NCBI GenBank assembly: GCA_965197475.1
Contig: CBDANF010000002.1
Coordinates: forward strand, 1,184,001 to 1,248,000
Direction of reading: 5' to 3'
Length of the DNA: 64,000 nt
Source of the DNA: Candidatus Poribacteria bacterium
Lineage (GTDB): Bacteria > Poribacteria > WGA-4E > WGA-3G
Positions 5,685-56,721 of the stretch are shown piece by piece. Under the pieces are notes generated by a model. That model saw only the letters and a program-made list of their open reading frames with translations. It did no database searches and had not been told where the DNA came from. The stretch's first letter is position 1, and each line of letters starts with the position of its first letter. A program made the translations under genes and the position numbers.

Positions 5685-5693
5685 GGTATTCTC

Positions 5694-6858: not shown

Positions 6859-6974
6859 AATTATATAGCCTCCATTAAAATTTGTCAAATAAAACTATCT
6901 GTTATATCCTATCGTTGTGCATAGTACACGTGCGCAACAAGGATGACAAGCATTGAAACACTTTCCAATGCAAC

Positions 6975-9304: not shown

Positions 9305-10035
9305 CGGTTCCTCCTCTGTCGTATCACATCAAGATCTTCTTTTGACGGTAGACCTCCATATTTTTCCCGCGGATCTCCATATTTTTCAAAAGGAGAGGGA
9401 TGGTTAGACTTTGGGATGAGTGCATTGTACGGCTCAAGGAGTTTCTCCAATTCCTCAACTCTTTCAAGTGCATAACGGTTATTCGTTTTGTCTGAAGAAT
9501 AAAGATTTCGGAGTCTCCACATTGCGTTCTTAACTTCCTGTATTTCCTCCCATAATGCATGACTTCTTAGATCACCAGAATTGCGGTATTTTACATAAGT
9601 CTGCACAAGTTTTTTAACTCTATCCGTGTAAGCTTCACTGAAGACATCCTCAGGAAGTTTCAGTTCTGATGGTACCGTATTCGGTATCGCGCGTTCGCCT
9701 TTTTTGCGCCACGTGTTGTCTGGATACAACCGCCACGTGTCGTCCGTTTCAAAAGATGGTTGGTTTCCAGCATCCACGACAGCGGGATCATGGGGAGCAT
9801 CGTGCCAAGTTCCATCTGCGTGCCGATGCCCTTTTTCTCGGTTTCCTTCTGGCGACTGTGCTTTGGCTGCTTTCTGTGCTGCCAAATCCTGCCTTATCTT
9901 TTGCCACTCTTCTTCCGATGGCGGGTTATAGACGGTTTCCGTTTCGGTATCTTTGTCTATCAACAAGAACACACCCGCAATACCGAGCAGGACGATGAGG
10001 ACAACGATTCCTCTCAATATGTTCCTATTCATCAT
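9301..10035 (-). CDS. N-terminally anchored protein with GHRHADGTWHD motif (cassette B gene 2)
   Basis: TM helix; its stop overlaps the gene 3 start (ATGA). Confidence 0.8.
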   Translation of the reverse strand: MMNRNILRGIVVLIVLLGIAGVFLLIDKDTETETVYNPPSEEEWQKIRQDLAAQKAAKAQSPEGNREKGHRHADGTWHDAPHDPAVVDAGNQPSFETDDTWRLYPDNTWRKKGERAIPNTVPSELKLPEDVFSEAYTDRVKKLVQTYVKYRNSGDLRSHALWEEIQEVKNAMWRLRNLYSSDKTNNRYALERVEELEKLLEPYNALIPKSNHPSPFEKYGDPREKYGGLPSKEDLDVIRQRRNR

Positions 10036-10471
10036 AGTTCTCCTTACTATAAAGTTGTTCACTTTGCGCCGCTGCGTTCAGCGGACAAGGTGCTTTCTGT
10101 TGTGGACAAATCGGTTGCTGTTCCACTTTTGGACAGTCCTTCTGTGTCCATTCAGGGCAAGGGGTTGTGTCTGTCTGTGTAGCATCAATCATTTTTATTG
10201 TGCCAAACAGTAACCCGCCGCCGATACAGACAATAAGTGCCGCTGTGAGTCCTATCTTTCGCCTACGTTGCTTTTTCGGTTTCGGGGTGTCCTGTTGTGT
10301 GTCCATCTGTTTTAAGGACAAGAATCCCCAGCACGAGATCGTGAGTGCAACGATACTCAGATGGATTCCGTGCTGCTCAAAAAAGAGTGCGAAGTACGAG
10401 ATAGCGGTGAGTCCACCGAATGCAGCCACGGCTGCGATGTCGGCATTCGCTGTAAAAAATCTTGTTTTCAC
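10025..10471 (-). CDS. Small 3-TM membrane protein (cassette B gene 1)
   Basis: Paralog of 6412-6858; GGAGG RBS. Confidence 0.75.
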   Translation of the reverse strand: MKTRFFTANADIAAVAAFGGLTAISYFALFFEQHGIHLSIVALTISCWGFLSLKQMDTQQDTPKPKKQRRRKIGLTAALIVCIGGGLLFGTIKMIDATQTDTTPCPEWTQKDCPKVEQQPICPQQKAPCPLNAAAQSEQLYSKENYDE

Positions 10472-10587
10472 AATTATATATCCTCCATTAAAATTTGTCA
10501 AGTAAAACTATCTGTTATATCCTATCGTTGTGCATAGTACACGTGCACAACAAGGATGACAAGCATTGAAACACTTTCCAATGCAAC

Positions 10588-10846: not shown

Positions 10847-11029
10847 TGCCAAATCCCCTTATGCGAAAAAATACGGTTTGCGGCGGTGCAACTTTCCACT
10901 TCCCAGAATTTCTATGTTGCACGCGGATATTATCCATAACTAAACCTAATTACGTGTGTATTGCCTCCTAAGTTACAGTAAATACGAACTTTTTCAAAAA
11001 TCGTAAAATTTAAGTTTTAAAATTGTCGC

Positions 11030-15231: not shown

Positions 15232-18200
15232 TTGATAATGCTCTCAATTGAACATTGGCATGGGAGATCGGCAGCTTTGTGTAAACGTATTGTGCACGCG
15301 TTGCTATACGTAATGCAGCGTTTCTTAAGTGTGTCTCCCAGAATATCAGTGTGTCTCATGCACGCATGCTGCCTCATTTTCGTATCGGTTTTGTTTGTCT
15401 TTAGTTTTACTGCTGTTGCTGATGTTACCCAAGTGACCTCAGCAGATGGCATTACTGTAACTTTCAAACTTCCGCAACTTCAGGTTACGCAAGTTACACC
15501 AGATGCAGATTTTAAAGATGCAGAGGTAGGTGGTGTATACCACACAGTGCGATATTCAGAATGCGGTTGGATTCGAGAGCCAGGTTTTCCCAGATTGCCG
15601 GTCACACGTCTGTTTTTAGCTGTTCCCGCCGATGCCCAACTGAACAACGCTGATGTTTCTGTCAACGCGGGGTCTTCACAAACCCATAACGGTGTGAGGC
15701 TTTTGCAAAGCGAAAAAGAGATACCGCTGAGTACCGAGGGTGTTTCTATTGCAGCAGGACCTTTACAAACCGATGGCGGTGCGGGGTTTATCCAAAATAA
15801 AAAAGGGGCGAATCCTAATTCTGGTTCCGATCGGTATCCGGCAGTGTTAGCACGTATAGAGATGGATGGTTACATCCGTTCCCAACGCGTCATCAGTTTG
15901 GCTTTGCATCCAGTGCAGTATAATACTGCGACGCGTGAACTTCGTTCTTATAGCAGTCTCAATGTCTTTATTCCTTTTCATTCACAATTGAAAGCTCGTG
16001 CGGCTGCTGCTACACTTGCCCCTAACCTAACAAACTTAACACATACAGCTTCTCCTTATGAACAGACCTTTTCACGGCATATTCTCAACTACGCACAATA
16101 CCGTACGTTATTCAACAGCGGATTGGAAACAGGCAGATCTTTTCGTGCCGATACTGAAATGTTTCCTGCTGCGCCTGCTGCACCGGGGCTTACCGACAAA
16201 TCATTTCAGACCCGTTACAAACTCTATATTGATGAAACTGGCGTATATAAGGTTACGGGAGCATCTCTCCGCACCAACTGGGGTATTGATCTTATAGGTG
16301 TTGATCCGAGAAAACTTCGTCTTACACATGGGGATCAGGAAATTCCTATCTACGTTAGCGGTGCGGTGGATGGAAGTTTTGACGCAGAAGATGCGATCTT
16401 TTTCTTAGCACACGGTTCTACTGACCCTGAGAGTCCTGTCCGAAAGAATGCATATACGTTGTGGAATGTCTATTGGTTGAGTATTGCTACGGAAGGACAA
16501 AATCCGGTACGCGTGCCACAAATTGAAGCGAGTCCAAGTGATGCAACAGCAGTTCAAGTCCCAACTTTCCGCTCGCGCGTCGTTTTTGAGGAGGATCGCC
16601 TCACCAATAACCTCGAATTCGTCTATCCGGAAACCGTTGCAGCTGGTGATAAACACAAGTGGTTTGATGCGTTAGACTTTTGGTACTGGGACGGTATCAA
16701 AAATTCGAGCGATATTGGGGAATTACGACTTAATTTTCCACTCCATGACATCGCGAAAAGCTTTGATCCGCCACAGATACAGGTTGTGTTACAAGGTGGA
16801 ACACCCGTGCCTCATGAAATTCTCGTAGCAGTTAATGGTGTTCGGGTTGATCTTGCCAAGTGGGATAGTCAAGCACAAGTGACTCTTGCAAAGAATCTCC
16901 GTGTTTGGAATAACCTCAAAGATGCAGCGAAAGGCGAAACCAATGTTCTTTCTCTAACGCGTATTGACACCACCTTTGAAGAGGACACAACCCGTTATCC
17001 GTATCATATCTATCTCAACCGGTTCTGGGTTGACTATACGCGTCTCTTTTTAGCTGTAAACGGTCAACTCCGTTTTGGTACTCCTGTCAAGACAGGGCGC
17101 GAGAATGAAAATAAAAGTGTTACACATCAATTTCGTATTGATGCTTTCCTTGATTCGCAGATTTCCGTTTTCGAAACAGATGGGAACATACTTACGGCAA
17201 AACTTCAAGGTGTTCATGTTGCGCGCCATGCGACAGATGATGTCATGCGCGAGCGGCTCAAAGTATTGAATTCTGGTGACCTCAGAGCGGTGCCAAATAA
17301 CACCTATACAGCGACTTTTCAGGTGCCGGATACCCGAACAACCGAGTTTATAGCGGTGTCTGATACCGCACTTCGGAAACCTATTCAGGTAGAAACAGTT
17401 CCTCCAAGTGATTTACGGGACCCATTGAACGGTGTGGATTACCTTGTTTTGACACATCCAAGATTTCGCGATGCCGCCGACAGGTTAGGAAACTGGCGTT
17501 CAACAGCAGACGGTGGTGGATACCGAACCAAGGTTGTGGACATTAATGATGTTTACAACACTTTTGGTGACGGAAAGGTTCATCCTATCTGGATTAAAAA
17601 TTTTCTGACGTATGCGTATCAAAATTGGGCACCGCCAGCACTCTCATATTTAGTGATCTTCGGTGATGGCACCTACGATTTTCGAGGTATTGACAAAGAA
17701 ATCTATTCTGAACCACCAGAACTTTCAGGTTATATACCCACCCACTATATTTCAACAGATTCCTTCGGCAGAACAGCCGCGGACCATTGGTATGCCACAG
17801 TTTCCGGACACGATGAATTTGTCGATTTTTATCTCGGTAGATTAACTGTTGAAAATGAGGTGGAAGCAGACACAGTTGTTGATAAGATTATCAATTATGA
17901 AGCGCGACGTCCTAACGGTGCGTGGCGGCGGCGGATTATCTCTGTTGCTGATGATGAAGTTAGCAACTCTGGAGATTTTATTTTTAAAAAAAGTCTCAAC
18001 GAAATTGCCAAAGACCGTACACGACTCGGATATGAAACTGTTGAAATTTATCTTGAAGATGTCATAGATGAGGTTGAAGCAAAGCCCGACGAATTCCCTG
18101 GGATTCTTCCTCGGCACGTTGCGAAAGGTAGGATTATTGATGCTTTAGGCGAGGGCGCAGCCATAGCACAATACGCCGGACATGGTGGGCGTATTGTTTG

Positions 18201-21200
18201 GGCACACGAAGCCATTTTTGATAACGCTTCAATTGATAAGGTTGAGGAGACCGGACATCTTCCGTTTATGTTGGTGTTGAGTTGCTATAACGGGTATTTT
18301 GACGCGCCAGGTGAACCGAGTATGGCGGAAAAACTGCTCCGGAAAAAAAGGGGTGGTATCATCGGCATGCTCAGTGCAACGCGACTTACCTACGGTAACG
18401 GGAACGAGGCACTCAACCAAATTATTTTTGATATGCTGTTCCAACGCGATGTTCGACAACTCGGTCCCCTCAGTTTTGATTCTAAACTTGAATTCCTACT
18501 GACAGAGGGCACGGGGCAGCTTAACATCATGCTTGAATATACGCTTTTCGGTGACCCTGCGATGCGTATCGCCATGGCAGATTATGACATCATTCCCGAA
18601 ATTGAGACGAAGACGGTCAAAGCAGGTGATACCCTCAAAATCGCCCCTGGATTCATTCAAACTGCCCGCTATGATGCCGCAGCAAAGCGGAAGGTTTTTA
18701 CACGGAATACGAGTTTTGATGGGGAACTCACAGTAAAAGCGGTTTTTCCCGGACAACAATTGGTCGGTGAAGATAAAACCGGTGCACCGAAGGAATACTA
18801 CTCCGGCGATGTGGTTGTCCCAAAGACGATCTCTGTGAAGCGGGGCAGCTATCCTGCTGTTAAAATAAGCGTGCCTGATAACATTTCGCCCGGGGATGCA
18901 CATGTGGAGTATTATGCTGAAAATGCCACCGAAATCGCTGTTGGTGGTGATGGTTTCACTGTCGATGTGCCGAAAATACTTGATATAAAACCTCAATTAA
19001 TTACCACATCATCTGGTGAGGACATGATCGAAGTTTCCGTGCTTGTTTCTGATGATAAAAAGGCGACGGTTTCTGTCGTTTTAGAATGGAGAAACCCGGA
19101 GAACCCTGATGATAACAAGGTTTTTCTCATTCCTGCTGCAATAGTTCCCGAATCAACAACATCTTTGGTAGCCACGGCGAGGTGGTGGAAACTTCCTGAA
19201 CCTTTACCTGTGCCAACCGATGGATCCGCGTTTCGATACGATATTCAGGTTACGGATGAGGATGATTTTGTTGTGTACTCGGATTATCACCGATTCTATC
19301 CATATACGTATCCCAACCTTGCTGTGGTTTCTAACCGTGCTGCAAAAATTAGACAAATCACTTATAAGTTAGGTGGTCCTGAAGGCACAGCGAATGAACG
19401 TTTTTTGTCTGTTGATATTGAATTAACGGGCACCTCAAGTTCTCAGGATGAAGATGTTTCTGAGCACGACTTGATATCGGTACTAGGGCTTTCTGATGTT
19501 GATGTTGAAGTAGCCTTTTTTAGCGGAAACCCAGATATAGATGAAAATGGTATCGTTGACACGGAAGCGCATCTGATCGGTAGCACGAGAATATCACCGA
19601 AGGACTGGGTTACGCGAAATCCTCTACATCAACGTTCTAATGCCTATACACCTGATCCACTCAACACTAATCCAATCGCTACTGCCGCTATTCCAATATT
19701 CCTACGTAGCGGCATACATGACATTTTTGTATATGTCGATCCGATTTTTACCGACGCAGATGAACCTGGAAAAGTGCTTGAAAATAATGAAACAGATAAT
19801 ATCGGGTATAGACAACTTACTGTTTCAGGTAGCATCGTCGGGGAAGTGCCTGCTCGAATGGCGAGTGTTGATGGGGGTTTTAGGATAACTGCGCCTGCGG
19901 GTGCTGTTCAAAATAAATCTTCAGTTCTGACTGTTCTTCCTATTGTTTCAGATGCTGTGGATGCAGAGTACGCTTACTTGATCGGCGGGACAGGAGAGGT
20001 GAGAAATACCACACCGCATCTGCCGTTTCCTATTATCGGACGTGAACGAACAGGTGATCGCGAGGCTGGAATGCTGCTGCCAGTAGCACTTTCAACTCGT
20101 CCATTCCTACTTGGATACACACTGCATTTAAACGAAACCGAATCTGTTGAACAATGGGCTGATCAATGGAATTCATTTAAACTCCAGGCACCGGTTGCCG
20201 TTGAACTTGATTTTGATTGGGCAGCACTCCAGCAGGAAGTTATACGTGAACTTTTTGGGAGTGAGGCAAATGTGTCAATTGAGGGACCAGCTATAGAGAC
20301 AACCCTTAGTACCGCTGTAGAGGAACGAGTACGCAACATCGGCGCATATCTTTGGATTGACACTTTAGCTAATTGGGTACGTCTTGATTCTGAAATCAAA
20401 AGACATACTAACGGCGATATTTACACATCTACACGGGCTGCCCAAATCCGTTCCGATAACACTGGTGATGGAAGGCTTGACGATGTTGCAATTTCATCGC
20501 AAGGAGCTGACACAGGAACGTGGATAGTCCTTTTTGAGACTGCGCGAACCTATCGCCTTCTTTTTATGCCTCAAGAATCTGTTGCAGGAACAGGGGTAGA
20601 CGGGAACACTATGGGGCATCAATTAGAAGAAATTGAGAGAGGGATTTCCATTATATCTTTTAGTAATGTGAGGACAACTTCCACCGACGCTGCTCCCGGA
20701 TTTGCTATTGACATTGAAGAAGGAGAAACCCCTTTCCAATTCGGTGATATATTACGTTTCAACATCACGCAGATTGAAGTGCCAGGTGAGGGAGGCACTC
20801 AATTTTATGCGTCTTCTTTTATCAGTAGAAACAGAGGAGATGGAGCAATACAGTATCTTGACTTGGAACCGGAGACGACAATGCCACAAGATGTTTGGCT
20901 CATCATGTTTGTCTCCGCAACACAGTTTCAGATTGAGGGAAAAAACATTGGTGTCTTGGCGAAGAATGGAGCACCGATATACGGAACAGTCGGTAAACCT
21001 TTTGAACACAGCGATTATGGGTTAAGTCTGCTGATAACGCAGGGTCCCAGACCTTTTACTGCGGGGGACCGATTCCTGTTTGAAACCACCAAGGTCGGAA
21101 CAATTCAAGCGCAAACCTCCTATTTGGGAACAGTTACCTGTCTTCAAAGCGAGGATACGTTGCCTCCCAACATCCAGTTAACGATTGGCAACCAGCAGCA

Positions 21201-21792
21201 CTTTACTTCTGGTACCTCAGTTGATGCTGCCCCACTTATCCAAGCAACGCTCACTGATGCGCGCGGTGTTGACTACATCACTCGTCCTGTTCAACTTGCC
21301 TTGGGGCGATTCGGAGAGTTTGAGACTATCGCTGAAACCGAATACAAACTTACGCACCATCCTGGGTCTAAGCAAATAGTTTTGACATATAATTCACCTG
21401 AACTTGAACCTCGTGAATATCAACTCCGACTCACAGCAAGCGACCTTGATGGAAATACGGGTGAGGATGAAATTACTTTTCATGTGCACAGCAAACTCCA
21501 ATTAGTGGAACCTTTGAATTATCCAAACCCGTTTACGCGAGATACCACAGTGACATGTGAATTGACACGGCCTGCAGAGTCGCTTACTATCAAAATCTAT
21601 ACCCTTACTGGGAGGCTTATCAGACAACTGAAAACAGAAGCACCTGCGGGGTATATACAACTTAAGTGGGATGGTAAAGATGACGATGGTAACGTGGTTG
21701 CTAATGGTGTCTACTATGGAAAAATTATTGTTAAAAGTTTTGACGATGAAGACGACCAGACCCATATTCTGAAAATGATGAAATTGAAATAG
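15232..21792 (+). CDS. Large C25 (gingipain/PorU-like) cysteine peptidase with C-terminal FlgD-Ig/sorting-like domain
   Basis: PGFPRLP propeptide, FGDG, AGHGG (His), LSCYNG (Cys), LFGDP, NYPNPF...WDGKD...GVY; true start may be 15313 or 15358. Confidence 0.85.
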   Translation: MIMLSIEHWHGRSAALCKRIVHALLYVMQRFLSVSPRISVCLMHACCLIFVSVLFVFSFTAVADVTQVTSADGITVTFKLPQLQVTQVTPDADFKDAEVGGVYHTVRYSECGWIREPGFPRLPVTRLFLAVPADAQLNNADVSVNAGSSQTHNGVRLLQSEKEIPLSTEGVSIAAGPLQTDGGAGFIQNKKGANPNSGSDRYPAVLARIEMDGYIRSQRVISLALHPVQYNTATRELRSYSSLNVFIPFHSQLKARAAAATLAPNLTNLTHTASPYEQTFSRHILNYAQYRTLFNSGLETGRSFRADTEMFPAAPAAPGLTDKSFQTRYKLYIDETGVYKVTGASLRTNWGIDLIGVDPRKLRLTHGDQEIPIYVSGAVDGSFDAEDAIFFLAHGSTDPESPVRKNAYTLWNVYWLSIATEGQNPVRVPQIEASPSDATAVQVPTFRSRVVFEEDRLTNNLEFVYPETVAAGDKHKWFDALDFWYWDGIKNSSDIGELRLNFPLHDIAKSFDPPQIQVVLQGGTPVPHEILVAVNGVRVDLAKWDSQAQVTLAKNLRVWNNLKDAAKGETNVLSLTRIDTTFEEDTTRYPYHIYLNRFWVDYTRLFLAVNGQLRFGTPVKTGRENENKSVTHQFRIDAFLDSQISVFETDGNILTAKLQGVHVARHATDDVMRERLKVLNSGDLRAVPNNTYTATFQVPDTRTTEFIAVSDTALRKPIQVETVPPSDLRDPLNGVDYLVLTHPRFRDAADRLGNWRSTADGGGYRTKVVDINDVYNTFGDGKVHPIWIKNFLTYAYQNWAPPALSYLVIFGDGTYDFRGIDKEIYSEPPELSGYIPTHYISTDSFGRTAADHWYATVSGHDEFVDFYLGRLTVENEVEADTVVDKIINYEARRPNGAWRRRIISVADDEVSNSGDFIFKKSLNEIAKDRTRLGYETVEIYLEDVIDEVEAKPDEFPGILPRHVAKGRIIDALGEGAAIAQYAGHGGRIVWAHEAIFDNASIDKVEETGHLPFMLVLSCYNGYFDAPGEPSMAEKLLRKKRGGIIGMLSATRLTYGNGNEALNQIIFDMLFQRDVRQLGPLSFDSKLEFLLTEGTGQLNIMLEYTLFGDPAMRIAMADYDIIPEIETKTVKAGDTLKIAPGFIQTARYDAAAKRKVFTRNTSFDGELTVKAVFPGQQLVGEDKTGAPKEYYSGDVVVPKTISVKRGSYPAVKISVPDNISPGDAHVEYYAENATEIAVGGDGFTVDVPKILDIKPQLITTSSGEDMIEVSVLVSDDKKATVSVVLEWRNPENPDDNKVFLIPAAIVPESTTSLVATARWWKLPEPLPVPTDGSAFRYDIQVTDEDDFVVYSDYHRFYPYTYPNLAVVSNRAAKIRQITYKLGGPEGTANERFLSVDIELTGTSSSQDEDVSEHDLISVLGLSDVDVEVAFFSGNPDIDENGIVDTEAHLIGSTRISPKDWVTRNPLHQRSNAYTPDPLNTNPIATAAIPIFLRSGIHDIFVYVDPIFTDADEPGKVLENNETDNIGYRQLTVSGSIVGEVPARMASVDGGFRITAPAGAVQNKSSVLTVLPIVSDAVDAEYAYLIGGTGEVRNTTPHLPFPIIGRERTGDREAGMLLPVALSTRPFLLGYTLHLNETESVEQWADQWNSFKLQAPVAVELDFDWAALQQEVIRELFGSEANVSIEGPAIETTLSTAVEERVRNIGAYLWIDTLANWVRLDSEIKRHTNGDIYTSTRAAQIRSDNTGDGRLDDVAISSQGADTGTWIVLFETARTYRLLFMPQESVAGTGVDGNTMGHQLEEIERGISIISFSNVRTTSTDAAPGFAIDIEEGETPFQFGDILRFNITQIEVPGEGGTQFYASSFISRNRGDGAIQYLDLEPETTMPQDVWLIMFVSATQFQIEGKNIGVLAKNGAPIYGTVGKPFEHSDYGLSLLITQGPRPFTAGDRFLFETTKVGTIQAQTSYLGTVTCLQSEDTLPPNIQLTIGNQQHFTSGTSVDAAPLIQATLTDARGVDYITRPVQLALGRFGEFETIAETEYKLTHHPGSKQIVLTYNSPELEPREYQLRLTASDLDGNTGEDEITFHVHSKLQLVEPLNYPNPFTRDTTVTCELTRPAESLTIKIYTLTGRLIRQLKTEAPAGYIQLKWDGKDDDGNVVANGVYYGKIIVKSFDDEDDQTHILKMMKLK

Positions 21793-24860: not shown

Positions 24861-25742
24861 TCACCGCATACTTTCATTAACAAACTTATCAAAGATACTG
24901 TCAATGCTCCTATAGTTGTATTTATAGCACGCCTCTGCTACATACAGGGGCGTATATTCAGTCCAGTAGTGGTGATGACTTCCATACCAAGCTCGTTTGA
25001 GTAGACTCCAAAACCCCTCAATTGTGTTTGTGTGGACATCACCCTCAACAAATTGCGTTTGATGATCTATGATATGGTGTTTCATCTCCTTGCCGATAGC
25101 GAGATACGCCTTATACTCATCGGTCATCAACTCCGAATCCTCAACTTTGACGACTCTTCGGATAAAGTCTAAAATAGTCCGTCCTGTCAAATCTTTAGCG
25201 AGTTGTGCTACAACTTTCCCGCCCCGCTGTACTGCCCCGATAATAGCGTCTTTCTCTGTTCCACGTCCACGCTTGGCAGGCACGTGGTCTTCCTTCTTAT
25301 TAGGCTTACGAGGTTTACCCCCGATGTAAGTTTCATCTGCCTCTATGATGCCTTGTAGTAGCACGTTACCTTTCTTTGCCATTTCAGCACGGATACGAGT
25401 CATGATATACCATGCTGTCTTTTGATTCAAGTCTAAATCGCGCGCAAGTTGATGACTTGACAAACTTTTCTTCGCATTCGTTATCAACGAAATAGCCAAA
25501 AACCACTTCTGTAACGCTATCTTTGTCCCGTGAAACACCGACCTGCACGTCACCTTGAAACTCACTTGGCACTCGTGGCAGTTCCAACGACCGATACGAC
25601 CGATTTCTGTTTCTGTCCGTTCTCCTATATGATCGCTTTCACAATGCGGACACACAGGTTTACCTCGCCACCGAATCTTCTCTAAATGCGAAATACAACT
25701 CTCTTGATCGGGAAAACGCTCCATCACCTTCAACAAATCCAT
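24861..25742 (-). CDS. IS1595-family transposase
   Basis: CPHC/CHEC zinc ribbon, EADETYIGG, MTDE, HTNTIEGFWSLLKR; AAGGAG RBS before ATG 25742. Confidence 0.95.
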   Translation of the reverse strand: MDLLKVMERFPDQESCISHLEKIRWRGKPVCPHCESDHIGERTETEIGRIGRWNCHECQVSFKVTCRSVFHGTKIALQKWFLAISLITNAKKSLSSHQLARDLDLNQKTAWYIMTRIRAEMAKKGNVLLQGIIEADETYIGGKPRKPNKKEDHVPAKRGRGTEKDAIIGAVQRGGKVVAQLAKDLTGRTILDFIRRVVKVEDSELMTDEYKAYLAIGKEMKHHIIDHQTQFVEGDVHTNTIEGFWSLLKRAWYGSHHHYWTEYTPLYVAEACYKYNYRSIDSIFDKFVNESMR

Positions 25743-26258
25743 CAGATAACTCCTTGAAATAGGAGTTGCTTTTTCTGACGGATTTCTGATATAATACCAG
25801 ATAAGATTAGAACCGTCAAAAAGCAACTCGCTTTTTGTGTTCATTTAGGGGGCTACCAACCCCCTATTTTCTTATCTATATTATACCATATAAACCCAGT
25901 GGACACAAGGCTTTATAGCGATTTTTTAAAATTTTTCTCAAGTCCAAAACTACTCATTGCGTTGTTTTTTATACACCTGTCGCACCGCTGGTGCTTGGCT
26001 ACTGGAGGCATTTACGTTTCTATACACCTATCGCACCCGCTGGTGCTGCCAATATGGGCGATAAAATTCTTTTTCTGTGGGTTTCAGACAGTGTTGTAAC
26101 TCAACGAAAATATATCAGACATCAAAGTGGCAGTCCCAGAGGGACGGAATGTGTATAGATCATTACCAGTCCCACTCCAAGCCCCAAAGGGGCGAAATGT
26201 GTTTTAGCGCGAGATTCAAAAATGAAAATGAAAAGCATCACGTCTCAAAAAACTGTCC

Positions 26259-31148: not shown

Positions 31149-32324
31149 TTATGGACAAACAAACTTCCCTAAAATTTTCCCACATGATGCTCCTGTTGCA
31201 TTCGGCACATTGCCAAAATTCCCATGCACCGCTTCGTTCGCGAGGATAGCAAAGGCAATTGCCTCTTTAGCATCTCCTGAAACACCTTTTTCTGTTACAT
31301 CAACAGCTGGGATAGGAGCGAATGCATCGGTGAGTCCACGCATCATAAGAGGATTTCGTGCCCCGCCACCGCTGACGTATAGAATGTCCAGCGGTGTTTT
31401 TGTCTCGGCAAAATGCGTATGGTATTGAGCGATACTCTCAACTGTCAATGCTGTGAGCGTTGCAAGTCCATTATTATCTGAGATCTTTTGTTCCCGAATT
31501 TGTGACAAGCAGGTGTCCGCAAACGTTGTTCCAAACATCTCGCGTCCTGTCGTTTTGGGTGGAGATAACTCAAAAAACGGATGTGCAAGCCATTGTCTTA
31601 AGAGAGGTTCACAGACGGTACCTTGCCGCGCCAACTCTCCATTTTCATCAAATTGCTTTGTGCCATCTGTTATTTTTTCTACGCATGCATCCAAGATCAT
31701 ATTGCCAGGGCCTGTGTCTGATGCTTTAACTGCTTCAATCCCTTTTCCTGCTGGTAACACCGTCAGATTTGCAATGCCACCTATATTTAAGAGTCCAATT
31801 GTTTGTGTTGAATGGTGAAATAGCAAATAATCGGGGTATGCTACTAACGGTGCGCCTTCACCACCCGCTGCAACGTCTGCCACACGGAAATCGGCGATGG
31901 TTGGGATACCTGTCTCATGTGCTATCACTGCAGGTTCACCAATTTGGAGTGTCGCTGGGGTTGGTGCTGAGGGCATGTGGTGAATCGTTTGCCCGTGCGA
32001 TCCGATTAGATCAACTTTTGCTGGTGCTACGCCAACCTTTTCCAGTACCGTCAAAACACTTCTCGCGAATAGTTTTCCCAACACAAAATTCATTGTGCAG
32101 ATTTCATCAACTCGCGCTGTCTCCACACTAAAAAGGTTAAAGATTCTCGAACGAATATCAGGTGAGTATGGAAGCGTTTCAAACGCTATCAGTGATATTT
32201 CGGTAGTCAGTCCTGACCCCGTAATCTCAACAAGCGCGACATCCACGCCATCTGCAGATGTGCCGCTCATTAAGCCGATAATTAGTTTTTTCTCTTTTTG
32301 TAGGAGATCGTAAAATGGTTTCAT
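31149..32324 (-). CDS. anmK: Anhydro-N-acetylmuramic acid kinase
   Basis: IGLMSGTSADG, GSHGQT, GGEGAPL, LNIGGIAN, DTGPGN, PPKTTGRE. Confidence 0.95.
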   Translation of the reverse strand: MKPFYDLLQKEKKLIIGLMSGTSADGVDVALVEITGSGLTTEISLIAFETLPYSPDIRSRIFNLFSVETARVDEICTMNFVLGKLFARSVLTVLEKVGVAPAKVDLIGSHGQTIHHMPSAPTPATLQIGEPAVIAHETGIPTIADFRVADVAAGGEGAPLVAYPDYLLFHHSTQTIGLLNIGGIANLTVLPAGKGIEAVKASDTGPGNMILDACVEKITDGTKQFDENGELARQGTVCEPLLRQWLAHPFFELSPPKTTGREMFGTTFADTCLSQIREQKISDNNGLATLTALTVESIAQYHTHFAETKTPLDILYVSGGGARNPLMMRGLTDAFAPIPAVDVTEKGVSGDAKEAIAFAILANEAVHGNFGNVPNATGASCGKILGKFVCP

Positions 32325-32446
32325 GGTTTTTGGTAATCGGTTGTTAGTTGTCGGTTAGTAAGGCATTGTCTATCACAAGTCTCTTTAACCGAATGGGTGG
32401 ACGGCACGGCGGAGCGTGCCTACTACTATGCAACGAAAACGATTAA

Positions 32447-33610
32447 CTAATACAACAGATACGGTTTTCGTCGTTCTTGGAATCTCTCCGCGTGAGCAGA
32501 CCATGCTTCAATAATTTCATTGCACGGTGTTCTCGCTAACAGTGCTTCACGGAGGGTTGAATTTCCTGCTAATCTATCAAAATGTGACTCTCTAAATTCA
32601 AATTCATCAGAGTGTTCAGTAAGTAATGTTCCTAACATCCATACTGCAATTTCAACCGGTGTTACCTGCTCTTGATTAATAATATGTATTGCAACGCCGT
32701 GACATACTTCATCACTATATTTGGAAAACTGCGGCGTAAACACAATTGGACGGAAAAGCACACCCGGAAACTGATGCTCGTTCAATCGAGTTGCGCATCT
32801 CTGGCTATCTATCCATGGTGCACCAATATATTCAAAAGGCTTTGTAGTTCCTCTTCCTTCGCTTATATTTGTGCCTTCAAATAGACATGTTCCGGGATAG
32901 AGTGTTGCAGTCGCAAGCGTTGGCATATTCGGCGAGGGCGGTGCCCACTGCAGACCTGTTTCGTTATACCACATCTCCCGATGCCACCCTTGCATCTGAG
33001 CAATCTTGAGCGGAAATCGAAATCCTTGTTCTGCATGAAAGAGTTTTGCAGTTTCACCAATCGTCATGCCGTAGCGGACAGGAATTGGATATGGTCCAAC
33101 CAGGGATGTGTAGTCAGATTCTAACATCGGTCCCTCTATGTGGATACCTCCGATAGGATTTGGACGATCCGCAACAATGCACGCAATACATTTACCCGAC
33201 TCCATCGTACATTCAAGTGCTTTCATTGCCTCCAGTAGCGTGCCAAGATAGGTATAATATCGCGCCCCCACATCTTGTATATCATAGATGATTACATCTA
33301 AGTTCTTTAGAATTTCTGCCCATGCAAGTGTTGTTCCATATAGGCTATAGACCTGTAGTTTTTGCGCTTCTGCTGTATTCTCTTGATTGTGATCATACTT
33401 TGAATCTGCTATTTTTACCCCATCCTGCGCTGCGCCCCACAACCCATGCTCCGGCGAAAAAAGCGCGACCAAATTGAGTTCCGTTAACAATTCAATAGTG
33501 TGTGTCAAGTTTTCATTTACACCGGTGTGGTTTGTAATCAAACCGATAGATTTGGCATCAATCCATTCCTGTTTTTCTGTCAGTAGGTGGGTTATACCGA
33601 GTTTTATCAT
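32447..33610 (-). CDS. DUF1343 / NamZ-type exo-beta-N-acetylmuramidase
   Basis: LFSPEHG, YDIQDVGARYYTY, DRPNP, PPSPNMP, SEGRGT. Confidence 0.9.
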   Translation of the reverse strand: MIKLGITHLLTEKQEWIDAKSIGLITNHTGVNENLTHTIELLTELNLVALFSPEHGLWGAAQDGVKIADSKYDHNQENTAEAQKLQVYSLYGTTLAWAEILKNLDVIIYDIQDVGARYYTYLGTLLEAMKALECTMESGKCIACIVADRPNPIGGIHIEGPMLESDYTSLVGPYPIPVRYGMTIGETAKLFHAEQGFRFPLKIAQMQGWHREMWYNETGLQWAPPSPNMPTLATATLYPGTCLFEGTNISEGRGTTKPFEYIGAPWIDSQRCATRLNEHQFPGVLFRPIVFTPQFSKYSDEVCHGVAIHIINQEQVTPVEIAVWMLGTLLTEHSDEFEFRESHFDRLAGNSTLREALLARTPCNEIIEAWSAHAERFQERRKPYLLY

Positions 33611-34668
33611 CCGAAGACTATCCTGTGGAATTGATTTCGACATTCAATGATGCCTGTGCGTTGCGCGTCTGGATGAACCCGATTTGTCAACAGGATCGCA
33701 GCAATCCCCTTTTCAAGATCAATCCGTATTGAGGTGCCTGTGAAACCGGTGTGATACATTGACCCATCGGCAAGGATGTGCCAACCAATACTCCGTTGTT
33801 CGGGAGCATCAGGTGGTGTCTGTGGTGTGGCTAATGCCTTTATACTGTCAGAAGACAAAAACGTGCCACTATCTTGGAGTAGCATTTGACAAAAGGTGAT
33901 AATATCTCTCACATTAGAAAACAGCCCTGCATTGCCGGATACACCCCCCAGAAAATTGGCATTTTCATCGTGAACCTCTCCGATGATAACGCCTTCGCGC
34001 CAGTTGTGACCGCGGTAAAAGCGTCCGTGTTGACCTGAATTTACCATTCTGCGTTCGAAGCTATTTGAATCCTCTGTTGCTACGCAGTTATCGTGCAACG
34101 TTGGCGGTGGGTTATATAGGGTGCGGTTCATACCAAGCGGTTTGAAGATTGTGTTATGTGCTAAACTGTCTAACGATTCTCCCGTAATGGTGGAGATGAG
34201 TTTCCCCATGAGGATATATCCTAAACAACTGTAGGTTACCTTCTCTCCGGGGATTGATTCAAGAGCCATTCTACCCAAATGTTCTATCACATTTTCAGGT
34301 GAATCTGTTTCAATATAGAGTGGTTTCCAAGCAGGTAAGCCGGAGGTATGTGAGAGAAGATGGCGACACGTAATGCGCGGTTGTTTGAATGCGGGTAGGT
34401 ATGTCTGTGCAGGTGCATCTAACGACAACTTTCCAGAGGCAATCAACTGCATGGTAAGTGTTCCGATGACGATCGGTTTTGTCAAGGAGGCGAGGTCAAA
34501 CAACGTATCGTGAAGCATCGGTGCCTGCTTCGGTGTTATAATACGATCTCCGAACGCTGCGTGATAGATGACCGTGTCTTTTTGGAGGATGGCGACAACA
34601 GCACCGGGGAAAATCTTTTCGGTGATTCTTTTTTTAATGAGTGTTGAAATTGCTTTTGCGTTCATCAC
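33607..34668 (-). CDS. Beta-lactamase-fold serine hydrolase (AmiE-like)
   Basis: FDLASLTK, YSC, GEVHDENA, HTGFTGT, LTNRVHP. Confidence 0.9.
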   Translation of the reverse strand: MMNAKAISTLIKKRITEKIFPGAVVAILQKDTVIYHAAFGDRIITPKQAPMLHDTLFDLASLTKPIVIGTLTMQLIASGKLSLDAPAQTYLPAFKQPRITCRHLLSHTSGLPAWKPLYIETDSPENVIEHLGRMALESIPGEKVTYSCLGYILMGKLISTITGESLDSLAHNTIFKPLGMNRTLYNPPPTLHDNCVATEDSNSFERRMVNSGQHGRFYRGHNWREGVIIGEVHDENANFLGGVSGNAGLFSNVRDIITFCQMLLQDSGTFLSSDSIKALATPQTPPDAPEQRSIGWHILADGSMYHTGFTGTSIRIDLEKGIAAILLTNRVHPDAQRTGIIECRNQFHRIVFG

Positions 34669-34731: not shown

Positions 34732-35717
34732 GGCTCATGTAAAAAGTAAGTGCTATTTTTTCAAAGTTATGTTAGCGTGTTACCTATGGACTTTCCAATA
34801 CAATCTCTCATGGATGAAGAAAAAACTCAAGCGTGGGTGTTGGATCATTTCCACCTTCAAGGGCTGTGTTGCCCAAAATGCCAAGCGAGCGTGGCGGAGG
34901 CACGCAAGTTCCGTCCGACTGAAACAAGTGGTCTACAAGTGTATCGCTGCAAACACTGTGAGAGCATCTACAACCTCTATACCGGGACGGTCTTTGCTGG
35001 CACGCAGTTTCGTCCCTCACAGGTCGTTCTGCTTTTGCGCGGTGTCTGTCAAGGTGTTTCAAGTGCACAACTCGGGTGTGAACTGGGTCTAAGTCGTCAA
35101 ACCGTTCTTTCTATAAGACGTAAACTCCAAACTTCGGCAGAGCAGATACAACCCGAAGCTGCTTTACCTGATGCTGAAGTCGAAACAGATGAGATGTTTC
35201 AAAACGCCGGTGAAAAAGGCGATAAGCACGTTGATGCTTCGGATCCGCCGCGTCGGCGTGGCAATAAACGCAGGGGACATGGGACTTATGACAATGATCG
35301 TCCGCCTATTGTTGGGACGAAAGGTCGCGAAAGCGGTCTCCTGAGATTACGTGTTGTGCGGCACACCGATTCTGCGACGCTTTCAACACACGTTCATCAG
35401 TGGACGTTGCCGACTTCAACGGTGTATACGGATGGTTGGCGTGGCTATAACCGTATTCAGCGCGCCCGTGAGATTGTTCTCCATAAGGATGGCGAGTGGG
35501 CAAGAGACGCAGACGGTGATGGTCTTTACGAGATCCATACAAGGACGATTGAAGGTGCCTGGACGACGCTGCGAAACTTCCTTCGTCCCTTTCGTGGCGT
35601 TCATAAAAAGTTCCTCGCCGGTTACGTCGCAATCTGTGAGTTCGTCATGAATCTAAAAGCTGTCAGTGTTGATTTTATAGCAAAACTCGTCAAAAGCACT
35701 TACTCTTGACATGAGCG
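34732..35717 (+). mobile_element. IS1595-family insertion sequence
   Basis: Imperfect IRs (G/C)GCTCATGTnAAnAGTAAGTGCT; no TSD seen. Confidence 0.85.
34786..35709 (+). CDS. IS1595-family transposase
   Basis: CPKC/CKHC, VETDEMF, VYTDGW, HTRTIEGAW. Confidence 0.9.
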   Translation: MDFPIQSLMDEEKTQAWVLDHFHLQGLCCPKCQASVAEARKFRPTETSGLQVYRCKHCESIYNLYTGTVFAGTQFRPSQVVLLLRGVCQGVSSAQLGCELGLSRQTVLSIRRKLQTSAEQIQPEAALPDAEVETDEMFQNAGEKGDKHVDASDPPRRRGNKRRGHGTYDNDRPPIVGTKGRESGLLRLRVVRHTDSATLSTHVHQWTLPTSTVYTDGWRGYNRIQRAREIVLHKDGEWARDADGDGLYEIHTRTIEGAWTTLRNFLRPFRGVHKKFLAGYVAICEFVMNLKAVSVDFIAKLVKSTYS

Positions 35718-51859: not shown

Positions 51860-52120
51860 ATAATCGCATCGTGGGTGGAAGGGGACACCAGCCCCTATCC
51901 ATGATGTATTGCACAAAACAACATGGTAGCAGGCACGCTCCGCGTGCCGTCCGCCGCGCATTTGATGTTGATTTAGATTTCTTGTGGGACAGAACTTTGT
52001 AAGCCCGATAGTTGTCTGAACCTCGGATTATACGGATTTTGCAGATTGCACGGATTTTTTGTTGGGTTTCGCAAGCTCTACCCAACCTACGGACTTGTCA
52101 ACATTATTCAGGAGGTTAAT

Positions 52121-52885
52121 ATGAACAAATTTGCGAAAAAGGAGTTATTAGAAAAAATATCCAGCATTTTCTTGCTATGTTTGTTAGTTGCTTCATGTGA
52201 TTCGCTATACCCATTAATTCCAGATGAACTTGAGGACAAACCCATCTATCTTGATGGACAGGAGCTGAGTTATACCATAACAGATGATGGTATTTACTTA
52301 GAAACGTCTAAAGTCAATGATCCGCTCACACCGCTTCTAAAACTCTTAAGTAATGAAGAGAAGTCGAAAGGCCAACTTCTCTATGGAACTCTTGAGAGTG
52401 TTGATCATATTTACGATGGGGATACAATTGGGAGAACAATCGGCGGTGTATTTCATGGTGTCTCTGTGAAGATCTATCCAGAGTGTGATCTTGCGGAATC
52501 TGAGACTAACACGCTTTGGTTAGGTGTTGAATGCCGTGAGGATGGAATTTTCACTGTGACAAAAATCAGGATATCCGGAATTGACGCGCCTGAAAAATAT
52601 CCAAAGACGGCAGGACGCACTGAAGAATCTCTGAACAGAGAAAAAGCACGAGCTGCGGCTGCATTAGAATTTCTTAAATCGTTGATTCTTAAATACAACG
52701 AAGATGGAAAAGAAATAGGATTTGCGATTAGAATTATCGACAACTCCAAATATGGAGACACTCTTGCAGATGTCATTCTCTTCAATGATGAAATGTATGT
52801 TGATGTTGCTACCGAAATGATAAAAAATGGACACGCCGTGTCCTACGATGGCGGAACAAAAACACACGATTGGGGCGCGGAGTGA
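52121..52885 (+). CDS. Thermonuclease (SNase-like) lipoprotein
   Basis: Lipobox VASC; YDGDT, IRISGIDAPE, KYG, GHAVSYDGG. Confidence 0.8.
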   Translation: MNKFAKKELLEKISSIFLLCLLVASCDSLYPLIPDELEDKPIYLDGQELSYTITDDGIYLETSKVNDPLTPLLKLLSNEEKSKGQLLYGTLESVDHIYDGDTIGRTIGGVFHGVSVKIYPECDLAESETNTLWLGVECREDGIFTVTKIRISGIDAPEKYPKTAGRTEESLNREKARAAAALEFLKSLILKYNEDGKEIGFAIRIIDNSKYGDTLADVILFNDEMYVDVATEMIKNGHAVSYDGGTKTHDWGAE

Positions 52886-52919: not shown

Positions 52920-53765
52920 TAGACATTATAATGATTTAAATAACAGGAGTTTCATAACGCCAGGGTCTGAAGTTTAGGCGAAAATTGTGTAAACCACAAT
53001 AGGTTTCCATAACTAAATCACAAAACCCTTTCTTCCAATTCCTGAGTTTATCTTTGACAATGCGGCATCTTTTGACACCACTAATCGCATGTTCAACGCG
53101 TATGCGTATAGACGCTATCTTTCTATTGTTTTCTTTTTCTTCATTCGTCCGTTCTCTACCTCTCGGTTTTTTCTTCGGTTGAATGATGTTTATATCCGGG
53201 AGAACGAAACCCTGAAAACCGGTATCTTGGGACAATGTGCTACCCTGTGGCACACAATAGCCCACCATATCGGCTATGTGTTTGTCATGATATCTCCCTT
53301 CAAAGAAGGTGTCAATAGGACAACTTTGCAGGTCTCATTGATAATCAAATTATTTTTCACTGTATGACATTTCTTTTTACCACTATAATAACCCTTTTGA
53401 GTTTGTGGGTCTTTGGGGCATCGTATCGGGCGTTCGGTGCTATCATGAAAAAAATGTTCTCCTTCTTGATTTTGAGTTGATACTTTTGATGGAGCACATA
53501 TAGGGGCGGGGTCTGTTTCCCGAGATGGCAACTCTCCAAGTTTTGCTAATGCTTTGTTCAATATTGATAAAAGCAAGTGAATCCATCTATTAGCAAGAGG
53601 TTGAGACATACCAAAGAGCGCACCCAATAGAACTTGTTTCGGAGCATCACGCAGGTAAATCAAGATAAATAGCAACATATCTTCATGGCAAGCAAAACGA
53701 CTATTTTTATAGGGTTTATATCTCCGATTTTTGCGTGGTTTGCCATCAAGGGTATGTGTTCGCAT
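52920..53765 (-). pseudogene. 5'-truncated, frameshifted IS5/ISL2-type transposase copy
   Basis: Highly similar to 53786-54620; 1-nt deletion near 53302; keeps one IR (TAGACATTATAA). Confidence 0.85.
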
Positions 53766-53769
53766 ATAT

Positions 53770-54812
53770 TAGACATTATAATGATTTAAATAACAGGAGT
53801 TTCATAACGCCAGGGTCTAAAGTTTAGTCGGAAGTTGTGTAAACCACAACAAGTTTCCATAACTAAATCACAAAACCCTTTCTTCCAATTCCTGAGTTTA
53901 TCTTTGACAATGCGGCATCTTTTGACACCACTAATCGCATGTTCAACGCGTATGCGTATAGACGCTATCTTTCTATTGTTTTCTTTTTCTTCATTCGTCC
54001 GTTCTCTACCTCTCGGTTTTTTCTTCGGTTGAATGATGTTTATATCCGGGAGAACGAAACCCTGAAAACCGGTATCTTGGGACAATGTGCTACCCTGTGG
54101 CACACAATAGCCCACCATATCGGCTATGTGTTTGTCATGGTGTCTTCCTTCAAAAGAAGGTGTCAATAGGACGACTTTGCAGGCCTCATTGATAATCAGA
54201 TTATTTTTCACTGTATGGCATTTCTTTTTACCACTATAATACGCCTTTTGAGTTGATGGGTCTTTTGGGCGTCGTATAGGGCGTTCGGTGCTATCATGAA
54301 AAAAATGTTCTCCTTCTTGATTTTGAGTTGATACTTTTGATGGAGCACATATAGGGGCGGGGTCTGTTTCCCGAGATGGCAACTCTCCAAGTTCTGCTAA
54401 TGCTTTGTTCAATATCGATAAAAGCAAGTGAATCCATCTATTAGCAAGAGGTTGAGACATGCCAAAGAGCGCACCGAATAGCACTTGTTTCGGTGCTTCA
54501 CGAAGGTAAATCAGTATAAATAGCAACATATCTTCAGGTGTATCAAAACGACTATTTTTATACGGTTTATATCTCCGTTTTTTGCGCGGTTTTCCTGCAA
54601 GGGTATGTGTTTGAACATACTCTAAAAAACATTTAGTAAAATAAGGTGATAGTTCAGTCCAATCTTCTAAGGTATATCCGGTGAGGGACAGGAGCGTATC
54701 AGGTTTGTCCCTTAGTTCTTGAAAACTTATCATGAGTTAGCCTCCTATTGTCCGATTGTAATAAGTATAATAGAGACTAACCAAACGGACAACTAATTAG
54801 TTATAATGTCTA
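53770..54812 (-). mobile_element. IS5-family (ISL2-like) IS; transposase 53786-54733
   Basis: IRs TAGACATTATAA; DSTERP, YYSGKKKCH, QDTGFQG, RIRVEHAI. Confidence 0.85.
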
Positions 54813-55089: not shown

Positions 55090-56106
55090 ATGTTTCAAAA
55101 CCTATCTATTCGATGTGTTGGAGTCGTATTGTTAATAACAGTACTTTTGATTCCAGCAGCTATAGCGGAGAAAGAAGTGGAAAAACCAAAAGAACTTACA
55201 GTTGGAATGATCGCACCAAGTTTTACATTAAAAGATGAGACAGCCAAAGACAGAAATCTCAGTGAATTCTTGGGCAAGAAGAACGTTGTGCTTGCCTTTT
55301 ATCCGAAAGATTTTACCGGTGGCTGAACAGCTGAACTTCAGTCGCTCCGGGAAAAATTGAGTGACATAGAGAAAACAGAAGCTGTCCTATTTGGTGTCAG
55401 TGTGGACAATGTTGAATCGCATAAAAGGTTCAAGGCGGAACAGCAGTTTGGATTTTCACTATTAGCAGATACTGAGTTTGAGGTCAGCAAGCAATACAGC
55501 GGCATTATGGAGAGGTTCAACGCTTCCAGACGCACTACCTTCATTATTGATAAGGCTGGATATATACGTGCGATTGATAAAAAAGTTAAAGTACAAACGC
55601 ATGGTGATGACGTTGTTAAACTGCTCAAGGAAGTACTTCCTAAAATAAAAGTTGGGCAGCCTGCTCCCGATTTTATCGCTAAGGATGTCGCGGGAAAAAC
55701 GCATAAACTCAGCAAGTTGCGTGAAAAAAAGAACGTGGTTTTAGCATTTTACCCACGTGATTTTGGGCGTGGCTGAACGGTTGAAGTTTGCTCGCTCCGT
55801 GATGAGGCGAGTAGTTTTACTGAACACGATGTCCAAGTTTTTGGGATTACTGTCAATGATGCAAAATCGCATCAGAAATTTACGGAAGAAAATGAGTTGA
55901 ACTTTCCACTTTTAGTGGATACTGAGAAAAATCTTGCCTTACTCTTTGGTGCTGCAAAAAAACCAGAAGACGAACGGTTCAAGCGGTTGACAATTGTTAT
56001 TGATAAAGCAGGAAAGATTGTGAAAATTGACAAAGAGGTTAACGCAAGCACACACGGGTCAGATTTAGTGGGATTTTTCAAAACCCCTGTTACGCCGAAA
56101 AAATAA
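55090..56106 (+). CDS. Exported two-domain peroxiredoxin (BCP/PrxQ-like) selenoprotein, 2 Sec
   Basis: Three ORF-track pieces form one frame; TGA at 55324 (FYPKDFTGGU) and 55774 (FYPRDFGRGU) occupy peroxidatic positions; hairpins follow both. Confidence 0.88.
55341..55365 (+). promoter_or_regulatory. SECIS-like hairpin 1
   Basis: GTCGCTC/GAGTGAC stem 14 nt after UGA. Confidence 0.6.
55791..55811 (+). promoter_or_regulatory. SECIS-like hairpin 2
   Basis: CTCGC-TC / GA-G-GCGAG stem 14 nt after UGA. Confidence 0.6.
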
Positions 56107-56109
56107 TTG

Positions 56110-56721
56110 ATGACACAAAAAACTTTTTCGGCATTTCCTGCGTGGGTCGCCTTGGGCACTTCCGTAATTTTTAGTCCGTTTATTGTGCCTATTGTGACAG
56201 CTGTGTTCGTTGTCCAAAAACATGCGAGTACAAGCCAAGACGCTATACTTTGGCTTGCTGTTGTAGGGACATTTGTAACAGTTCTACCAATATTGGTAAT
56301 CATATTGCTATTTCGGTTTTCAAAGGTGAGTAATATACATCTCCACACCAAAGAAGAACGGCTAATCCCGCTCTGTTTCACACTAGTCAGCATGATCTTG
56401 GGTACTATTATTCTCTATAAGATTGAGGCAAATCAAAGAATTATTTGGGTGTGCCAAGCATATATCGTTAACAGTGTGGTGTTTTCGGCTATAACACCAT
56501 TATGGAAAATTAGTTTCCATACCAGTGTTGCCACAGGCTGTATTATTGTTTTAGTTTTACTTGTTAATTTGAATTTGATGTGGCTTTTTCTTCTTATTCC
56601 GCTAATCGCATGGGCACGAATTTACCGGGAACGGCACACACTTCTTCAAGCTGTCGCTGGAACACTATTAGCAGCTGTGAACACGATGCTCTTTTCACAT
56701 TTTCTACCGCCTTCAGGTTAA
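56110..56721 (+). CDS. PAP2-like membrane protein
   Basis: Multiple TMs; WKISFH, WARI...HT. Confidence 0.7.
   Translation: MTQKTFSAFPAWVALGTSVIFSPFIVPIVTAVFVVQKHASTSQDAILWLAVVGTFVTVLPILVIILLFRFSKVSNIHLHTKEERLIPLCFTLVSMILGTIILYKIEANQRIIWVCQAYIVNSVVFSAITPLWKISFHTSVATGCIIVLVLLVNLNLMWLFLLIPLIAWARIYRERHTLLQAVAGTLLAAVNTMLFSHFLPPSG

Follow-up and report, generated by a model that had tools for sequence, protein, structure and literature searches.

A probable tandem two-selenocysteine peroxiredoxin gene in Candidatus Poribacteria

Introduction

A 64,000-nucleotide stretch of Candidatus Poribacteria DNA (assembly GCA_965197475.1, contig CBDANF010000002.1, positions 1,184,001 to 1,248,000; hereafter the window) contains three short open reading frames (ORFs) in succession on the plus strand between positions 55090 and 56106. 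They raise the question of whether separate or decayed genes lie here, or one gene in which two TGA codons are translated and, if so, as which residue. The present analysis indicated that the region very probably carries one gene for an exported tandem peroxiredoxin (Prx) of the BCP/PrxQ type, in which both peroxidatic residues are selenocysteine (Sec), each inserted at a UGA codon by means of its own in-frame Sec insertion sequence (SECIS). Sec-peroxiredoxin chemistry and the recoding system are already known, and the tandem chain with two Sec residues and two SECIS elements may be new.

Results

The frame and its conservation in related genomes

The coding sequence (CDS), as delimited by its Pfam domains and orthologues, extends over 55090..56106 on the plus strand and consists of 338 codons followed by TAA. 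The only in-frame stops are the TGAs at codon 79 (55324..55326) and codon 229 (55774..55776), and translation table 11 splits the frame into ORFs beginning at 55090 (78 aa), 55357 (139 aa) and 55897 (69 aa). A Shine-Dalgarno-like GAGG is located approximately 10 nt upstream of the ATG. Both TGAs are surrounded by GGC-TGA-AC, with TCGCTCCG downstream of each, and the peptides around them, with U for Sec, read FYPKDFTGG-U-TAELQ in domain 1 and FYPRDFGRG-U-TVEVC in domain 2. An earlier note on this DNA had joined the three ORFs into a 338-codon frame broken by two TGAs only, had placed the TGAs at the position of the peroxidatic Cys of BCP/PrxQ enzymes, and had described the common codon context together with a hairpin starting 14 nt downstream. 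The frame was reproduced at the same coordinates and so were the context and the motifs, Cys being present in the corresponding column of distant homologues, and hairpins were found to fold after both TGAs.

Orthologues were collected by a scan of species-representative genomes, in which the tandem gene was found at 18 loci (L001-L017 and L024); the window and these 18 tandem orthologues are referred to below as the 19 sequences. The records of 17 of the 18 are titled Poribacteria, and that of L008 is titled 'uncultured bacterium' metagenome-assembled genome. The encoded proteins were 53-83% identical to the window protein over the best segment. TGA occurred at both sites in all 19 sequences, and both the frame and the protein conservation continued through the two TGAs. 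An alignment of homologues for UGA or Cys at both sites had been proposed as a check in the earlier note, and it gave TGA at both positions in 18/18 tandem orthologues and Cys in distant homologues. The latter included exported single-domain proteins (P0022-P0035, 41-48% identical) with FTSGC or FTGGC, and distant two-domain forms also had Cys in the active-site column. Codons 79 and 229 are read here as probable Sec codons for the peroxidatic residues of domains 1 and 2, respectively.

The residues around the active sites varied among the 19 sequences. The position five residues after the TGA (+5) in domain 2 was Cys in every sequence. In domain 1, the same position was occupied by Gln or Lys in four (the window and L001-L003), by Cys in seven (L004-L010) and by Arg in eight (L011-L017 and L024). 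The position of the catalytic Thr in domain 2 was Gly in 11/19 (the window and L001-L010) and Thr in the other eight. The lack of a +5 Cys in domain 1 and the replacement of Thr by Gly in domain 2, both emphasized in the earlier note, were correct for the window and turned out to be traits of sub-clades rather than of the family.

A related form was also noticed in the database proteins P0019-P0021, which have Ser at the active site of domain 1 (CPTELLVGST). Their annotated sequences end in ...FYPKDFTSG, where the TGA of domain 2 would be, and one of them is located on a 94-kb contig. Judging from these sequences, the form may be derived from the two-Sec protein and carry a single Sec, with domain 1 inactive.

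RNA constraint and hairpins downstream of the TGA codons

The codon alignment of the 19 sequences showed a pronounced loss of synonymous variation behind both TGAs. The normalised synonymous entropy was 0.254 for the 20 scorable codons at +1 to +13 of the TGAs, when compared with 0.745 for the other 158 codons (Mann-Whitney, p=1e-10). Among all 13-codon windows of the gene, the lowest values were found directly after the second and the first TGA, with the very lowest after the second.

Each of these regions contained a SECIS-like hairpin. Hairpin 1 (55341..55365, plus strand), 14 nt after the TGA, has a 7-bp stem of GUCGCUC and GAGUGAC with an 11-nt loop, CGGGAAAAAUU. Hairpin 2 (55790..55812, plus strand) has a stem formed by GCUCGCUC and GAG-(bulge)-CGAGU and a 6-nt loop, CGUGAU. 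The conserved hairpins begin 13-14 nt after the UGA and their apical loops contain G; spacing and loop features of this kind are the rules by which bSECISearch recognizes bacterial SECIS elements.

At site 2, the hairpin predicted by RNAalifold has eight pairs, a bulge of one base and the 6-nt loop CGKGAU. In the 19 sequences, 98.7% of the alignment cells were paired in this structure versus 26-38% when the partners were slid. Site 1 was divided into two sub-clades with different registers around a common GCUC/GAGY core (Y, C or U). The 7-pair stem with the 11-nt loop occurred in the window and L001-L010, with 98.7% of the cells paired (11 sequences), and the pair 18:42 of this set was CG in seven and GC in three. 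L011-L017 and L024 had a hairpin of the site-2 type, with 96.9% of the cells paired. The slid-partner controls over both sites gave 15-57% paired cells. Compensatory changes were seen at three pairs in all. Taken together, the evidence for RNA constraint was strong, and that for the exact structure was moderate.

Domain structure, predicted export and fold

Both halves of the protein are AhpC/TSA peroxiredoxin domains of the BCP/PrxQ type. Domain 1 (55192..55644, plus strand) contains P72-x3-T76-x2-U79 and R148, with Gln at +5 and no resolving Cys. Domain 2 (55645..56103, plus strand) contains P222-x3-G226-x2-U229, C234 at +5, and R299. The active-site Pro and Arg are retained in both. The PxxxT/SxxU feature with its Arg is complete in domain 1, and domain 2 has P222, U229 and R299 but Gly226 in place of Thr. 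Pfam detected two stretches of AhpC/TSA (PF00578, E 4e-68), and the best NCBIfam model was that of the BCP-type thiol peroxidase NF006960 with 178 bits (cut-off 140). The models for PrxU (NF040737, 105.8 bits versus a cut-off of 270) and Prx-SUH (NF045827, 17.2 bits versus 298) scored below their cut-offs.

The AlphaFold model was confident overall, with a predicted local distance difference test (pLDDT) score of 88.1 and a predicted TM (pTM) score of 0.83. Each modelled domain matched Bcp1 (3drn) and AhpE (1xvw) with TM scores of 0.84-0.90 on the target, and the structural matches (3drn, E 9.5e-22; AhpE 1xvw/4x1u, approximately 1e-19) were to single-domain BCP, AhpE and PrxQ proteins. The structure search gave no PDB chain spanning both domains (TM score on the query approximately 0.4). 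In the alignment with AhpE, U79 fell on the Cys of the motif.

The protein appears to be exported. A Sec-type signal peptide was predicted at residues 1-26 (55090..55167, plus strand) from R8, a hydrophobic core and A-I-A before E27, and the N-termini of all full-length orthologues were hydrophobic. Cleavage of the predicted signal peptide would leave a mature protein of 312 residues. The AlphaFold model had low confidence for residues 1-31 (pLDDT <50 for 1-11 and 14-31); DSSP assigned a helix to residues 6-19. Apart from U79, U229 and C234, the mature window protein has no redox residues.

This small set of redox residues and the apparent export would also suit a different function, in which the UGAs are recoded and the product acts as an envelope thiol-disulfide (selenol) oxidoreductase or redox relay, domain 2 being a non-peroxidatic partner of domain 1. 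The Gly in place of Thr in domain 2 of 11/19 sequences agrees with such a role, as do weak ResA-type and SelL-related matches (NF002854, 89 bits, and NF040769, 41 bits, both below their cut-offs) and the P0019-P0021 variant, which would pair a Sec domain 2 with a Ser-site domain 1. We nevertheless consider this function unlikely, as the best family matches were BCP and PrxQ peroxidases, the Prx Pro and Arg are present in both domains, Thr is kept in domain 2 of 8/19 sequences, and the motif is the Prx-type PxxxTxxU and not the WCxxC of ResA/TlpA.

Age of the tandem and its representation in databases

Domains 1 and 2 of the window protein were 43% identical to each other (E 7e-40). A quick maximum-likelihood tree was built from the 38 domains of the 19 sequences and 60 of 80 eligible single-domain homologues. 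The first domains (D1) and the second domains (D2) each formed a clade (support 99) and branched in parallel, indicating that the tandem is older than the divergence of these genomes and that both domains have been held together under selection since their common ancestor. As regards an origin by internal duplication, the sister grouping of D1 and D2 with respect to the single-domain homologues reached a support of no more than 61, with a warning of long branches from the program.

The protein-set search for full-length relatives, which was limited to 185-592 aa, identified 17 tandem proteins with 48-74% identity, encoded on short metagenomic contigs. At the two TGA positions, 16 of the 17 had Trp at both, and P0016 had Trp and then Gly. 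One of them, P0005, agreed with the L007 translation at 96% of 280 positions and had Trp where the DNA of L007 has TGA, which demonstrated that the Trp in the databases is an artefact of gene callers using a table with TGA as Trp. Among shorter database proteins, 812 matched with E<=1e-20, and the best 120 of these 812 were all 139-140 aa long and covered the same 41% of the query; several came from NCBI records. Six short proteins that were read extended from the first start after the first TGA to the Gly just before the second. The gene had been expected in the earlier note to be annotated in fragments, and the pieces between the two TGAs among the best 120 of the 812 short matches were indeed of this kind. 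The gene is therefore widespread in public data, where it is mis-annotated in a consistent way. This is a systematic error, in which public sets hold either 139-aa fragments or table-4 translations with Trp at the active sites, and consequently the selenoproteome counts and antioxidant inventories of Poribacteria are likely to be understated.

Such pieces are also what a decayed pseudogene or three separate small genes with genuine TGA stops would leave in the output of table-11 callers, the best 120 of the 812 short matches being 139-140 aa long, and the Sec machinery was not seen in the window. This explanation is very improbable, since both TGAs stand at the same codons in 19/19 sequences that are 53-83% identical, with conservation running through them, separate fragments would sever both Prx folds at the active site, and the parallel clades of D1 and D2 show that the two domains were co-retained under selection from their ancestor onwards.

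TGA as a stop codon in this genome

The 45 long ORFs of the window ended with TAA in 20 cases, TAG in 13 and TGA in 12. A six-frame scan of the window in which TGA was allowed as a sense codon, with its candidates compared to the ORF list, gave five candidates. Four of them were nested in or overlapped other ORFs of the list, and only the peroxiredoxin frame stood clear; this result and the retention of TGA at both sites in 19/19 sequences go beyond chance. The window encodes RF1, and no RF2 was seen there; as a release factor, RF1 carries no information on UGA.

The ends of two orthologues were of interest in this respect. The L015 orthologue appears to have its stop at a third TGA (10922), at the place where its relatives end with ...FFQSM followed by a stop. 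In L002 the last conserved residues are succeeded by two TGAs in a row, at approximately 11017-11025. Judging from these ends, the mRNAs of L015 and L002 seem to use UGA twice for Sec and also as the stop. The 12 of 45 long ORFs ending with TGA, together with the apparent TGA stop of L015, indicate that TGA is not a sense codon throughout.

A genome-wide translation of UGA into a standard amino acid (Trp under code 4 or Gly under code 25) would account for database relatives with Trp at both sites (16/17) or Trp and then Gly (1/17) and for RF1 being seen in the window without RF2, but it is hardly credible, as TGA closes 12 of the 45 long window ORFs, the other four TGA-sense frames lie inside or overlap listed ORFs, Trp or Gly at the peroxidatic position would make two dead domains that are both nevertheless conserved, and neither the synonymous drop nor the hairpins after the TGAs are expected for an ordinary sense codon.

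Selenocysteine machinery and evidence to the contrary

Two published sources lend indirect support to the ability of these bacteria to decode UGA as Sec. The supplementary COG table of PMC5649159 lists SelA 2, SelB 1 and SelD 1 in the column Ca_Poribacteria_WGA3G (the 36th genome column by count), and L010 comes from this same genome, WGA-3G. In the portion of PMC5649159 consulted, SelA and SelB co-occur in most sponge-symbiont bins, and the available part of PMC13582414 includes Poribacteria among the phyla listed for Sec-containing group 4 hydrogenases.

Several observations weigh against the reading of both UGAs as Sec. No selA, selB or selD was detected in the 64-kb window by Pfam among the 45 ORFs, and ARAGORN found no tRNA-Sec, and no tRNA at all, in the window or the 18 loci. 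No other selenoprotein gene was found among the window ORFs joined across TGA, the four other frames lying inside or overlapping listed ORFs. A covariance model of the hairpins (R1) searched against 412,679 bases of the window and the loci returned the 38 known sites and otherwise only weak matches with E 3.2 and 5.2. No conserved redox partner was apparent from the synteny of the 18 loci, with no thioredoxin, CcdA or DsbD near the gene. On the RNA side, the covariation was thin, most pairs being invariant. At site 2, two pairs were changed on both sides, both in the single lineage L017, and at site 1 no pair was changed on both sides in the set of L011-L017 and L024. The window hairpins taken alone gave z -1.85 (7/200 shuffles as stable) and z -0.29 (72/200), so that they are not clearly more stable than shuffled sequences; the case for real hairpins comes from their conservation and not from the folding energy. 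Part of the nucleotide conservation coincides with the conserved peptide S-L-R-D. Rfam had no match at the gathering score in the whole window, nor at E<=10 in 55250-55900. Finally, the peroxidase activity of domain 2 is not assured, because the catalytic Thr is missing in 11/19 sequences.

In the 18 loci, 11 non-Prx frames joined across TGA were listed; the four that were run against Pfam had no family.

Discussion

A proposed route from two UGA codons to an exported peroxidase

With both UGAs read as Sec, which we regard as very probable, the gene would be expressed as follows. SelB and tRNA-Sec would decode both UGAs, each site being directed by its own hairpin within the CDS approximately 14 nt downstream. 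The protein would then be exported in a Sec-dependent manner and its signal peptide cleaved. Each Sec would attack H2O2 or an organic hydroperoxide and become a selenenic acid. In domain 2, Cys234 at +5 would resolve this acid with formation of an intramolecular selenenylsulfide, as in BCPs of the CxxxxC type. Domain 1 of the window protein, because it lacks a resolving Cys, would behave as an AhpE-like 1-Sec peroxiredoxin, with either domain 2 or an external thiol restoring it. The reductant would presumably be a periplasmic thioredoxin-like protein.

A further idea, which we hold to be possible but rather doubtful, is that the two domains form a self-contained extracytoplasmic relay, in which domain 1 is a 1-Sec peroxidase and its selenenic acid is resolved across the interface by U229/C234. 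The loss in domain 2 of Thr, which is otherwise essential, would be tolerated owing to the low pKa of Sec, with which activation by Thr is not needed. If true, the relay would show in nature that the active-site requirements of peroxiredoxins are relaxed by selenium, and would do so in sponge symbionts, a phylum that meets peroxide from the host.

Relation to known peroxiredoxins and selenoproteins

By sequence and fold, the closest known proteins were BCP/PrxQ of the CxxxxC type and the 1-Cys AhpE of Mycobacterium tuberculosis, the 1-Cys designation being taken from PDB titles. E. coli BCP belongs to the CxxxxC type. The +5 Cys of domain 2 is like that of the CxxxxC BCPs, and domain 1 of the window protein resembles 1-Cys AhpE in having no such residue. 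BCP/PrxQ and AhpE differ from the present protein in being single-domain cytoplasmic enzymes with Cys. Domain 2 of the present protein, moreover, is without the catalytic Thr.

The Sec-peroxiredoxin family 'Prx' with the motif T/SxxU is established, according to the parts of PMC1794560, PMC2398784 and PMC13188914 consulted, and the table seen of the last of these, a 2026 review, gives one Sec for Prx. The protein described here shares with the Prx selenoproteins and with PrxU of Eubacterium acidaminophilum the AhpC/TSA fold, Sec in PxxxTxxU, and a SECIS within the CDS after the UGA. It differs from the Prx selenoproteins by having two Prx domains, two Sec residues and two SECIS elements per chain together with a signal peptide, and by being of the BCP/PrxQ type.

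Selenoproteins with several Sec residues or fused domains have also been reported. The review sections at hand (PMC13188914) describe the Prx-like UxxU proteins, MbdU and the HUGP/GUXX-star fusions, and those of the GOS survey (PMC2398784) describe a Prx-PP2C fusion and neighbouring Prx and Prx-like 2 genes, with no Prx-Prx chain mentioned in them. More than one Sec per chain and the fusion of Trx-fold domains are common to the present protein and these examples. As far as the portions of these sources go, the present protein is unlike them in being a tandem of two Prx domains, each with its own Sec. The four papers found on tandem or two-domain peroxiredoxins deal, by their titles, with engineered probes, Prx oligomerisation or HMGB1. 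In the literature found on Poribacteria with selenoprotein or selenocysteine, no tandem two-Sec Prx was described in the parts of the papers that were available.

The gene is conserved across sponge-symbiont Poribacteria, phylum-wide, and besides being mis-annotated it is mechanistically suggestive. It would offer a compact natural system for two successive UGA recodings on one bacterial mRNA, and its natural variants, with Cys, Arg or Gln at +5 of domain 1 and Thr or Gly in domain 2, could show what Sec buys a peroxiredoxin.

Gene neighbourhood and other features of the window

The order GFO-PhyH-Prx-membrane protein-unknown-YebC-RuvC-RuvA-RuvB-QueA was common to the window and 10 of the 18 loci, and the window RuvB was 98% identical to that of L001, which identifies the window as Poribacterial DNA. 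In the remaining clades the gene is located among shikimate-pathway or unrelated genes. A multi-pass membrane protein of 204 aa (56107..56721, plus strand) is encoded directly after the peroxiredoxin stop and is adjacent in the same proportion of loci (10/18). Pfam assigned it to no family, and its PAP2/LpxE-like match was weak (E 0.0086) and did not reach the cut-off. The gene may be co-transcribed with that of the peroxiredoxin, and we do not claim that it belongs to the system.

PhyH lies directly upstream of the peroxiredoxin gene in 10 related loci. In the window, a SNase-like gene (52046-52885) and two DDE transposase ORFs on the minus strand (53274-53765 and 53786-54733) are inserted between the PhyH-like gene and the peroxiredoxin gene. 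None of the 18 loci contained a match to the SNase-like gene or to the DDE transposase, and the segment 52046-54733 looks, from its gene content, like a recent insertion. IS1595-type transposase genes were also found at 24861-25844 and 34750-35709, and with the DDE ORFs added, mobile elements are abundant in the window.

Two neighbouring sets of three ORFs are located on the minus strand at 4206-6888 (492, 251 and 158 aa) and 7559-10501 (581, 253 and 158 aa). Their ORFs had no Pfam family at 1e-5, and the two sets may be a duplicated operon. A 2186-aa ORF at 15232-21792 encodes a C25 (gingipain-type) peptidase domain with a propeptide and a C-terminal FlgD Ig-like domain. A cluster of genes for AnmK, NamZ and a beta-lactamase-fold protein on the minus strand at 31149-34668 suggests recycling of peptidoglycan (N-acetylmuramic acid, MurNAc).

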